DNA from: an uncultured Pseudomonadales bacterium
Lineage (GTDB): Bacteria; Patescibacteriota; Microgenomatia; UBA1400
Direction of reading: 5' to 3'
DNA length: 64,000 bases
Assembly (NCBI GenBank): GCA_964589815.1
Contig: CAZPUR010000005.1
Span: 7,472-71,471, forward strand
Shown: in pieces, positions 6,772-8,934 of the stretch
Position numbering within the stretch: the first letter of the stretch is position 1
How the letters are laid out: every line of letters begins with the position of its first letter
The notes under the pieces: model-generated
Told to the model about the DNA's origin: nothing
Databases searched by the model: none
Seen by the model: only the letters and a program-made list of their open reading frames with translations
Made by a program: the position numbers and the translations under genes

Positions 6772-6775
<4 letters not shown>

Positions 6776-8934
6776 TTTGAGTCTTTTTTAGGTTTAGTAT
6801 ATCTTTCTCTTGATAATTTCAAGACTTTTTCTCTGTTTTTATTCCGGCATTTAGGCAGGGGCAGAGTTAAAGCATAAAAGGGAGTGGAGGTGAGGTTATC
6901 AATCGCCAACTTAATAATACTCTGGAAGTTGCCTAGCTTAACCAAGTCATCTTCTTCATATTCTTTGCCAAATTCACGCGATAAAAAATAAGCATCTTGG
7001 GCGCCAACCAAAAAAGAGATTAAAGTGCCGGTGTTGCCGAAAATAGCTTTTTGAATTTCTTCTGTCAACTGACCAATATATTGGTTAGCCACACAAATAT
7101 CGAGCCGATATTTTCTGGCCTCAGATAAAATTTTAACAAAAGAGTTCGTGGCAAAACTTTGGAACTCGTCTACGTATAAATAAAAATCTTTTCTTTCTGC
7201 TTCTTTCACTTTAACCCGGTTCATTGACGCCAGCTGCATTTTAGTAATAAACATCGCCCCCAGTAGGGCGGCATTGTCCTCGCCTAATTTGCCCTGGGAA
7301 AAATTACAAATCAAAATCTTGCCTTGATTCATAAATTCTTCTAAATCAATCGTGGAATGAGGATGACCAATAATTCCTCTGATCATCGGGGAGGTGACAA
7401 ATTGCCCGACTTTATTCATAATTGGTGAAATCGCCTCGGAACGAAGTTTGTCAGACATTTTGTTGTATTCATTAAGCCAAAAGTTTTTCAAAGCGCCTGA
7501 ACAATATTTTTCCACGACTTTTTGACGAAAAGCATCATCAGCCAATATCTTAGGCACATCAACCAAAGTACTGCCTGGCCGGTTCACCAAAGTTAAAATG
7601 GTGTTGCGCAAAATATATTCCAGCCTCGGTCCCCAAGAATAAGAATAAAGCTTGTAAAAAATGGCCACAATGCCGGAAGCGACTAGTTCTGCGTGTTCTT
7701 TTTCTTTCACTTCTAGGGGATTTAAACGAAAAGGATGTTTGGTATCTGAAGGGTCTAAAAAACAAACATCATTTAGCCTGTATGAGGGAATATAGTCTAA
7801 TAAAATTTCGCATAAATCTCCATGAGGGTCAATCACGGCCACTCCCTCTTTATTCCTGATATCATTAATAACCATGTTGGCAATTAAGGTTGATTTCCCC
7901 GTGCCGGTTTTGCCAATAATATAAATGTGTTTTCTTCTATCCGGCCTTTTAATGCCAAAATTAGCCATTTGGTTTTTAAACTCGGTTTTAGCAAAAAAAT
8001 TAATCTCTTTTTTCTCGGCCTCATCTAATCCCACGGCAATGGGCAGGTTTTCCGGCGGTTCGCCAGCCATTGTACCGCCCCAAGAAATGTTTTTAATTTT
8101 ACTTAAAGTTTCATTAGGAAGATGAAAAATGGTCGCTAACTCCTCAATGTTTAAAAATTGATAACGAGGCACATATTTAAATTGACGGTTAAGAATAGTT
8201 TGTAAAAATTTCTTTTTGGCTCTAGGTTTTTTTAGACCTAAACTATTGCCTTCGCCCGAAGTTAAATTACCAAAAGAACCAGCCAAGTGGTTTAAAAAAG
8301 AACTGCTGGCATTTTTATCTACGGAAATAGTTAATAATTTTAAACTGGATTTAAAAGCTTTCTGAGTAATTTTTTGCTCAAATAATCTAGCTTGAGGGTG
8401 AGAGCGATTGTGCTCGCCGTCAGGAGTGGGCACGCCTTGATCTAAGATTTTTCTCGCTGAAGCAGCATAACCTGAACCAGCAGGGCTAATTGATAACTGC
8501 AGCAAGGCTTTATCATCTGGACCAGCTTTGGCCAATGTCCCTAATAATGAAGATAAGGGATCAACATCTTGGAAATCTTTATATGTTTTTAAAGGATAAT
8601 AATAAGCTTTGCTTAAAACTAACTGGCCAAAATCTGACTTTTCCCATGGCCAATCCGAAAGATAATCTTTTACCCGAGAGATAATAGCTTTAGGATATTG
8701 AGCCGTCAGCTGGGAAATAAAATATGGCTCAAAATCGGTGCTCACCACACTGTAAAAATGAATGGTTTGCTTAAAAAGACCCAATTCAAAAGTAACACAT
8801 TCTTCTTTACCTAAAAGTCTTCGCCAAAAAGAAGACTGGATGTTTGATAAAGCCGCAAACAAGGCCACGGCCGCCTCAGGAGTCTCCTCGCTATCTTTAG
8901 GCACTCTAATTTCTAAAACCTGCTTTTCCATCAA
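6772..8934 (-). CDS. Soluble P-loop ATPase of the VirD4/TraG/TraD (type IV coupling protein, AAA_10) family, with no predicted TM segments
   Basis: Walker A IYIIGKTGTGKSTLIANM, followed by VIDPHGDL and PFRLNPL (T4CP-like DPxGD / NPL motifs); Walker B LYVDEFQSFA; C-terminal ANQYIGQL...FGNTGTLISF (TraG-D_C-like). The N-terminal ~330 aa are soluble with no hydrophobic helices. The gene sits inside the pur operon between purH and purB. Confidence 0.5.

Follow-up and report, generated by a model that had tools for sequence, protein, structure and literature searches.

Why should a gene for a conjugation-type ATPase lie in the midst of purine biosynthesis genes? This question is raised by a stretch of 64,000 nucleotides (hereafter the window; GenBank assembly GCA_964589815.1, contig CAZPUR010000005.1, positions 7,472 to 71,471), which is deposited as an uncultured Pseudomonadales bacterium and comes from a Microgenomates genome near Beckwithbacteria. 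A first-pass annotation, made from the letters of the window, had described the gene as a soluble VirD4/TraG-like ATPase co-transcribed with purCE-purH-purB-purA, had called this operonic link unexpected, and had proposed the protein as either the coupling ATPase of a distant apparatus or a repurposed DNA- or nucleotide-handling ATPase. The present analysis assigns the protein to a family of its own, named here the DUF8128-ATPase family, and it finds that the purine neighbours are not conserved. We consider the ATPase to be probably, though by no means certainly, the coupling-type second ATPase of the chromosomal type IV secretion system (T4SS) of Patescibacteria, with its own leaderless promoter and lineage-specific purine neighbours.

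The open reading frame (ORF) reported for the gene opens with TTG, and the codon that follows is ATG (position 8931; Table 1). This ATG is the likely start because an identical database protein, P0001, has 719 residues; the precomputed Pfam assignments of P0001 are PF26449 (DUF8128), TrwB_AAD_bind, DUF87, and TraG-D_C. The profile search proposed in the first-pass annotation placed four Pfam families, three of the type IV coupling protein (T4CP) type and DUF87, above their gathering cut-offs: TrwB_AAD_bind (34.6 bits against 20.5, with a profile match spanning residues 328–626), T4SS-DNA_transf (30.2 against 20.1), TraG-D_C (25.3 against 22), and DUF87 (35.5 against 23.2), the last being a model that spans the whole VirB4/VirD4/HerA clade. 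The Walker A, DPxGD, NPL, Walker B (DEF), and TraG-D_C-like motifs claimed for the protein are all present. In a set of 50 homologs, the core residues of the first four do not vary. Besides the Walker residues, this holds for DPHG at 368–371, followed by a nearly invariant D372 that is off the invariant list, and for N404 of the NPL at 404–406, with P405 and L406 off that list. The reported lack of N-terminal transmembrane (TM) helices was likewise borne out, since the maximum 19-residue Kyte-Doolittle mean of the ATPase is 1.06, and the T4SS membrane proteins of the same window have means of 1.75–2.67. No TM helix was found across the family either; the hydrophobic peaks correspond to beta-strands of the core, and the extensions at the C-terminus have a hydrophilic character.

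Structure prediction gave a view of the two halves of the protein. The full AlphaFold2 (AF2) model, built on 50 homologs, had a pLDDT of 87.2, and residues 1–300 modelled alone reached a pLDDT of 89.3 and a pTM of 0.87. In Foldseek searches with the full model, the best E-values were obtained for TrwK, the VirB4 of R388, over the full length (E 4.5e-16, ~850 columns), while the C-terminal ~410 residues matched TrwB (1e9s; E 7e-13, target-normalised TM score 0.65, ~413 columns), with Cag-beta, DotL, and HerA ranked behind it. For the N-terminal domain (N-domain, residues 1–300), the top 14 PDB matches were all TrwK/VirB4 (E 5.4e-7 to 3.5e-4, TMq 0.47–0.54) and the following ones were unrelated flavoenzymes; sequence searches of this domain against Pfam and the PDB found nothing. 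The pairing of the two N-domains is read from an apparently colinear full-length alignment with TrwK, the residue ranges being absent from the output. In the predicted model, then, DUF8128 looks like a VirB4-type N-terminal domain fold. The ATPase half scores slightly better with T4CP than with VirB4 profiles.

The NCBIfam models for coupling proteins gave scores of 40.7 bits against a cut-off of 366 (SXT_TraD), 40 against 250 (CD1115), and 16 against 521 (TraD_Ftype). Because the NCBIfam scores are far below the cut-offs, the protein does not belong to the TraD, VirD4-like CD1115, CedD, VirB4, or HerA families, and it represents a branch of its own within the FtsK-HerA ATPases of the VirB4/VirD4 clade. 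The earlier label "VirD4-like" has to be qualified, since the predicted architecture, a VirB4-like N-domain joined to an ATPase without a TM domain, is that of VirB4. A literature search for DUF8128 retrieved no papers.

The family can be placed more closely by comparison with known systems. Like TrwB and VirD4, the ATPase has a nucleotide-binding domain with Walker A and B motifs and an all-alpha insertion, and its P-loop matches that of TrwB, but a soluble N-domain of 300 residues stands in place of the N-terminal TM domain and the identity is just 13–15%. As for the partners with which a T4CP is associated, the window has no relaxase and a virB4 gene 28 kb off; such an association was seen in a clade of 10 loci and on one Bacillus plasmid, both described below. 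With VirB4/TrwK, the ATPase appears from the model to share a soluble two-domain architecture, that is, an N-domain followed by a RecA-like C-domain. It differs in having no Pfam CagE_TrbE_VirB hit even at E<=10, in scoring 26.7 bits against a cut-off of 643 with TIGR00929, and in lying outside the T4SS cluster, where the VirB3-adjacent role is filled by the window's own bona fide VirB4 (36993–38873), a protein that has just the P-loop in common with the ATPase. T4CPs lacking the TM domain are a recognised subfamily, one example being TraJ of pIP501, the partner of the membrane protein TraI (PMC7434980). The ATPase resembles TraJ, with which it is compared by description, as a coupling-type ATPase without a TM anchor and with presumed membrane access via a partner protein, but no TraI-like partner was identified for it. 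TraJ is not known to have a VirB4-like N-domain. A HerA/FtsK-type identity, named in the first-pass annotation as an outcome that would speak against its proposal, was rejected: the NCBIfam HerA models gave 15 bits against 850–970, the N-domain is VirB4-like and not a HAS-barrel, and the gene has no nuclease neighbour and the protein no TM helix.

The family is large, with 22,231 clusters at 50% identity at E<=1e-3, 14,782 at E<=1e-10, and 6,025 at E<=1e-30; in this search, many relatives had only the ATPase half together with a long C-terminal extension. The best 120 homologs are full-length and 56–86% identical, and PF26449 lies ahead of the ATPase domain in 119 of them, the sole exception being a fragment of 513 residues. 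Those homologs that carry a lineage name are mostly from Patescibacteria/Microgenomates (Beckwith-, Gottesman-, Shapiro-, and Blackburnbacteria), and the family is carried by nearly all Patescibacteria, a group that is also called the candidate phyla radiation (CPR). Comparison between loci showed that the ATPase is about as conserved as GroEL: in the relative L003 the identities are 79% for the ATPase and 70% for GroEL, in L007 86% for both, and in L006 65% and 66%. In Patescibacteria, the gene belongs to the core, is inherited vertically, and is under strong constraint.

The first-pass annotation had placed a VirB4/pilin locus 28 kb from the gene, and this distance is correct, the T4SS features lying 28–50 kb away beside dnaA and dnaN. 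This cluster is without a coupling-type ATPase of its own. No second T4CP-like paralog was found in the window, where no protein besides VirB4 shares even the P-loop with the ATPase. The region from 34098 to 58653 also encodes a 1268-residue protein with three hydrophobic segments, a 249-residue protein with five, and ORFs of 684, 935, 818, and 496 residues without a Pfam hit.

Evidence linking the family to T4SS was obtained from relatives. In a clade of 10 metagenome loci, whose ATPases are 60–82% identical to each other and 54–56% identical to the query, the ortholog stands next to prgI, a trsD-like gene, and virB4 in divergent orientation. All three have their orthologs in the window, the identities being 62–66% for VirB4 and 43–46% for the TrsD-like protein. 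The clade ortholog is followed by NMNAT/NAD-synthase genes, a protein of ~1200 residues, and, 2–3 genes downstream, a VirB6-like multi-TM protein; the 1268-, 249-, and 684-residue T4SS proteins of the window had no BLAST similarity to the ~1200-residue and VirB6-like proteins of the clade. Full-length homologs without TM helices also occur on Bacillus plasmids of 24–68 kb (95% coverage, ~25% identity, E ~1e-39), and likewise in Streptomyces, haloarchaeal, and Sulfolobus replicons. On the B. subtilis plasmid NZ_CP154917, a Tcp-type transfer operon with the homolog at its head reads homolog, Replic_Relax, TcpC, TcpE, an 847-residue AAA_10 VirB4-like ATPase, and a 743-residue protein; judged by gene order, the homolog stands where a coupling protein would be expected, next to a relaxase-like gene, and VirB4 is encoded separately. 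In Halalkalicoccus, a plasmid homolog comes after a "transfer complex protein". With orthologs beside prgI-trsD-virB4 in the clade and a plasmid homolog beside a relaxase-like gene, the suggestion that the ATPase serves the distant apparatus is plausible.

A census of Patescibacterial genomes (Quinonero-Coronel et al. 2025, PMC12102498) reported 5,713 VirD4-type T4CP homologs, just 148 of them near virB4; relaxases were few, and the T4SS clusters lay close to dnaA. The ATPase resembles these dispersed homologs in being chromosomal, usually far from virB4, without a relaxase nearby, and uncharacterised, and the T4SS of the window resembles the published clusters in its position beside dnaA and its multiple VirB2-like pilins. 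In its passages on T4CPs, VirD4, coupling proteins, and relaxases, the census counts profile hits only, and these T4CP hits may not all belong to the DUF8128-ATPase family. The same passages contain no VirB4-like N-domain, absence of the TM domain, GroEL-level conservation, leaderless promoter, or prgI-trsD-virB4 clade. A second full-length paralog (36% identity) was observed ~8 kb downstream of the ortholog in a 74% relative (L009, CAYXSR010000003.1, 19890–22034); it fits the published average of ~2 T4CP homologs per Patescibacterial genome.

The mechanism that we propose is as follows. The ATPase, in whose predicted structure a VirB4-N-domain-like module (residues 1–300) precedes a TrwB-like nucleotide-binding domain (residues 301–719) that carries an all-alpha insertion, would form a ring at the cytoplasmic side of the MPF_FATA-like T4SS that the chromosome encodes at ~37–58 kb. 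It would serve there as a second, coupling-type motor, recruiting substrate or energising transfer, and it would gain access to the membrane via protein contacts, possibly through the VirB4-like N-domain, instead of TM helices of its own. A bolder form of this proposal seems quite improbable to us: that the DUF8128-ATPase is a third kind of T4SS motor, with a VirB4-type docking N-domain on a VirD4-type coupling ATPase, possibly ancestral to the T4CPs that bear a TM domain, and a near-essential Patescibacterial core component powering the T4SS-mediated acquisition of host DNA or nucleotides, with purBA, nrdDR, ndk, and nadD/nadE-like neighbours reflecting that role.

Several observations weigh against a partnership with the T4SS. 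In this genome the gene lies 28 kb from the T4SS, and the partnership is something that we infer. Adjacent T4SS genes are seen in a single clade (10 of 76 loci), the commonest neighbour cluster is present in just 9 of the 76, and neighbourhoods are highly variable. The VirB4-type fold of DUF8128 comes from predicted structure only, and an hhalign comparison with eight Patescibacterial VirB4s reached a probability of 46%, covering the linker and P-loop only, where ELATIFHLP of the ATPase is weakly matched to SLATTFPFT. The promoter discussed below is called from a pattern in the sequence and not from mapping of the transcription start. The t4cp homolog of Southlakia epibionticum (Saccharibacteria) was reported as non-essential and the T4SS genes as essential (PMC12102498), although that homolog may not belong to the DUF8128 family.

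Finally, full-length homologs, N-domain included, occur in lytic Bacillus phages, namely SPO1 gp27.4 (L016, 92636–95356, 906 residues), phage G gp156 (90958–93147, 22% identity, E 2e-30), next to which another VirB4/T4CP-like ATPase, gp155, is encoded, and uncharacterised proteins of the phages JL, Basilisk, and Slash. Like the Bacillus plasmid protein, annotated as "DUF87 domain-containing protein", gp27.4 and gp156 are homologous to the ATPase over the full length and have no TM helix; they differ from it in being 100–190 residues longer, in residing on mobile elements or phages, and in being uncharacterised, and whereas the plasmid copy stands beside a relaxase-like gene, the phage copies have no known T4SS context. 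No T4SS is known in these lytic phages, and the fold can therefore act without one.

These points lend themselves to another explanation, which is possible but on balance unlikely: a cytoplasmic DNA translocase or remodeller independent of the T4SS, exapted for instance in segregation or division, in repair, or in the handling of incoming DNA. Besides the variable neighbourhoods, of which just 10 in 76 are near T4SS genes, and the phage homologs, such a DNA motor would account for the GroEL-level conservation, which suggests a housekeeping role, and for the position of the gene inside the division/cell-wall (dcw) cluster of one Blackburnbacteria genome. The fold similarity to HerA found by Foldseek is also significant, and published work leaves room for exaptation of Patescibacterial T4CP homologs, given the non-essential t4cp of S. 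epibionticum (PMC12102498). On the other hand, the prgI-trsD-virB4 synteny is kept across a deep clade (60–82% identity), the Bacillus plasmid homolog lies within a transfer operon beside a relaxase-like gene, the N-domain matches the T4SS-specific N-domain of VirB4 and not the HerA HAS-barrel or an FtsK domain, and TraG-D_C and TrwB_AAD_bind are above their cut-offs. A coupling-type ATPase of the T4SS is thus the reading that we retain.

The purine setting itself can be explained in a different way. A functional operon in which the conjugation-type ATPase is tied to the metabolism of purines or nucleotides, say as a motor that scavenges nucleotides or DNA under joint regulation with AMP synthesis, would be in keeping with the embedding of the gene among purine genes. 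The reported overlap of 4 nt with purB on the same strand is real (GTGA), and purB is probably co-transcribed with the ATPase gene and translationally coupled to it, as the sequence of the junction indicates. The gene was also correctly placed between purH and purB, although the two pieces of purH are not halves in the simple sense but are split and permuted, the AICARFT piece being encoded first and the second piece beginning 1 nt past its stop. The split is not a sequencing frameshift, since two assemblies made independently (L001 and L002) share this layout. It should be considered, however, that compact CPR genomes routinely overlap unrelated genes.

To follow the purine neighbours in relatives, which was the check on operon structure proposed in the first-pass annotation, homologous loci were gathered by three routes and the window proteins were mapped onto them; 80 metagenome loci (L017–L096, 47–86% identity) came from an alignment-based scan. 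At 86% identity (L007, L017), the ATPase gene is found in the order SBP, hypothetical protein, radical SAM, ATPase, CTP_transf, GroES, GroEL / M23, without purine genes. In the Beckwithbacteria relative at 79% (L003), the same backbone contains purB-purA with the identical 4-nt overlap, and the upstream purCE-purH block is absent. The relatives at 68% and 65% (L005, L006) keep the backbone in part, and those at 59–60% (L013–L015) have unrelated surroundings (RRF/M50, the inside of the dcw cluster, and PMT/NDK, respectively); purine genes are missing from all five. Within the flanks of the 80 metagenome loci, purA, purB, purH, and purCE were found in none, and the 25 Pfam families met most often in 150 immediate neighbours include none for purine synthesis; CTP_transf_like (9), DUF11 (8), PrgI (7), and NAD_synthase (6) head the list.

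Because synteny varies in this manner, the purine genes are variable inserts and the ATPase gene is the constant element. Its conserved site is the backbone VanW / SBP, hypothetical protein, radical SAM, ATPase, CTP_transf, GroES, GroEL / M23, around which an upstream block (DJ1, hypothetical protein, purCE, purH', purH'') and a downstream block (purB-purA) vary in presence; in the window, groES and groEL lie downstream of the ATPase gene beyond purB, purA, and the CTP_transf_like gene. The recurrence of ATPase-purB-purA in the Beckwithbacteria relative and the nucleotide or cofactor genes beside the ATPase elsewhere, namely nrdR-nrdD (L005), ndk (L015), and NMNAT/NAD synthase or CTP_transf_like in several clades, remain in favour of a metabolic link. 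The upstream purCE-purH block, however, is found in this genome only, and the promoter signature described next is present irrespective of the upstream gene. A functional purine operon is largely refuted because comparative synteny contradicts it, and we regard it as very improbable; to judge from gene order, the purine setting is a lineage-specific juxtaposition without functional meaning.

The gap of 40 bp between the ATPase gene and the upstream purH contains the extended -10-like element TGTTAAAAT and no Shine-Dalgarno sequence, whereas clear Shine-Dalgarno sequences precede purA, groES, groEL, the DJ-1 gene, and an 82-residue ORF. The pattern TGnTAnAAT followed by 6–11 nt and ATG recurs before the orthologs in L003, L005, L006, L009, L010, and L015, whatever the upstream gene, and the counterpart in L007 is CGcTATAAT. 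A -10-like hexamer, defined as a match to TATAAT of at least 5 in 6, was found 4–10 nt (mode 6) ahead of an in-frame ATG that coincides with the aligned N-terminus in 47 of 78 orthologous loci, compared with 1.2% (sd 1.2%) of random windows. Within the window, 8 of 36 TGnTAnnnT motifs lie 5–9 nt before the ATG of an ORF of 111–1,268 residues, where our own rough arithmetic from motif density gives a chance expectation of ~0.1; among them are the first of the pilin genes and the 1268-residue T4SS gene, the site at 45595 being inside the T4SS cluster. The distribution suggests mixed leaderless and Shine-Dalgarno-led expression in this Microgenomates genome.

A scan of 3300–13200 for consensus sigma-70 promoters and terminators found no excess over shuffled sequence (30 against 26 promoters, 9 against 9.5 terminators); it missed TGTTAAAAT because this is an extended -10 element without a good -35. 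Of the promoter and terminator whose discovery the first-pass annotation had held to be damaging to its view, a conserved promoter signature was found and a terminator was not. We infer that the ATPase gene has its own promoter of leaderless type, with extended -10 geometry, from which it would be transcribed. No terminator was detected between the gene and purB, and purB-purA is for this reason probably on the ATPase transcript; in this genome it would ride along without functional implication. The proposed co-transcription with the whole of purCE-purH-purB-purA thus probably holds for purB-purA but probably not for the upstream purCE-purH block, which is a separate matter.

A mobile-element remnant (plasmid, integrative and conjugative element, or prophage) or a HerA-like anti-phage defence ATPase has hardly any chance of being the right explanation, for although the protein matches phrog_5156 (7e-77), PADLOC mad8 (6.5e-17), and, weakly, several HerA models, and has homologs on plasmids and in phages, these PADLOC and PHROG matches are to generic ATPase or uncharacterised families, the chromosomal position among housekeeping genes is kept in relatives down to 65% identity, the GC content equals that of the surroundings, no integrase, relaxase, nuclease, or methylase partner is nearby, and near-universal, GroEL-level conservation is the opposite of patchy defence genes.

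Table 1. Positions of the ATPase gene, its parts, and other features in the window
Feature	Position	Strand	Remarks
ORF finder entry	6772..8934	-	720 codons, TTG start
DUF8128-ATPase gene (soluble VirB4/VirD4-clade P-loop NTPase)	6772..8931	-	719 residues and stop
N-terminal domain, DUF8128, residues 1–300	8032..8931	-	predicted alpha/beta fold, like the VirB4 (TrwK) N-domain
Linker and C-terminal ATPase domain, residues 301–719	6775..8031	-	TrwB-like nucleotide-binding domain with all-alpha insertion
Walker A GKTGTGKST, residues 340–348	7888..7914	-	G340, K341, G343, G345, K346 invariant in 50 homologs
All-alpha insertion, residues 411–536	7324..7701	-	from AF2 secondary structure; equivalent of the T4CP all-alpha domain
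Walker B YLYVDEFQ, residues 584–591	7159..7182	-	D588, E589, F590, Q591 invariant in 50 homologs
Extended -10-like element TGTTAAAAT	8939..8947	-	7 nt before the ATG at 8931, without Shine-Dalgarno
TGnTAnnnT sites before ORFs	27117, 48970, 58746	+	ORFs without Shine-Dalgarno
TGnTAnnnT sites before ORFs	58652, 45595, 28463, 24107, 8947	-	ORFs without Shine-Dalgarno
CTP_transf_like gene	3529..4014	-	directly 3' of the ATPase gene in relatives without purBA (L007, L017)
purA (adenylosuccinate synthetase)	4054..5373	-	own Shine-Dalgarno
purB (adenylosuccinate lyase)	5393..6775	-	4-nt overlap between its GTG start and the stop of the ATPase gene
MGS/IMPCH piece of split purH, encoded second	8974..9567	-	197 residues, carries AICARFT positions 1–58
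AICARFT piece of split purH, encoded first	9569..10528	-	319 residues, Pfam profile positions 68–311
purC-purE fusion (SAICAR synthetase and AIR carboxylase)	10515..11846	-	443 residues
dnaA	34098..35477		beside the T4SS region
dnaN	35718..36860		beside the T4SS region
VirB4-like gene	36993..38873	-	
TrsD-like gene	38818..39654	-	
PrgI/VirB3-like gene	39691..40677	-	
Seven tandem VirB2-like T4SS_pilin genes	55816..58653	-	

Some further observations concern the neighbourhoods. Among the annotated ORFs at 3.5–14 kb, only late purine steps are seen (purC/E, purH, purB, and purA). A NadD/NMNAT-type cytidylyltransferase gene stands directly 3' of the ATPase gene in two clades, often with NAD synthase (L029–L031, L034, L035, L037, L039, L041, L044, L046, and L050; L007 and L017). 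In the window, purB-purA is wedged between the ATPase gene and the cytidylyltransferase-like gene. The cytidylyltransferases of the two clades are not BLAST-similar, and the shared adjacency may be coincidence. The Blackburnbacteria ortholog (L014, GCA_016183565.1, 8001–10463) has 820 residues with an Arg/Asp-rich C-terminal tail, and in its dcw cluster it stands in the order mraZ, rsmH, a PBP gene (ftsI-like), the ATPase gene, murC, murB, murD. Several metagenome-assembled records (L007, L009–L012, and P0002) are labelled "Candidatus Bathyarchaeia archaeon" or "uncultured Pseudomonadales/Gammaproteobacteria" despite clearly Patescibacterial contigs; their synteny with and 48–86% identity to the window locus suggest mis-binning or mislabelling.

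Scattered soluble T4CP-like ATPases in Patescibacterial chromosomes are already known at the level of a census, and the N-domain has a Pfam DUF number. To this, the present study makes four modest additions: the VirB4-like fold predicted for DUF8128, the GroEL-level constraint, the T4SS-adjacent clade together with plasmid homologs in transfer operons, and the conserved promoter of leaderless type.

A purine-operon link, if true, would have meant a new coupling at the level of regulation or metabolism; instead, it is a gene-order artefact of one lineage, and it cautions that function is not readable from gene overlap in compact CPR genomes. For specialists, the starting points are the VirB4-like N-domain, the lack of a membrane anchor, the GroEL-level conservation, the T4SS adjacency in one clade, and the relaxase-adjacent plasmid homologs. 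The Patescibacterial T4SS is essential for epibiotic growth in the only model in culture, S. epibionticum, whose T4SS was reported to have neither a coupling protein nor a relaxase that could be recognised (Wang et al. 2023, PMC10633639). The DUF8128-ATPase family is the obvious candidate for the missing motor of the Patescibacterial T4SS.

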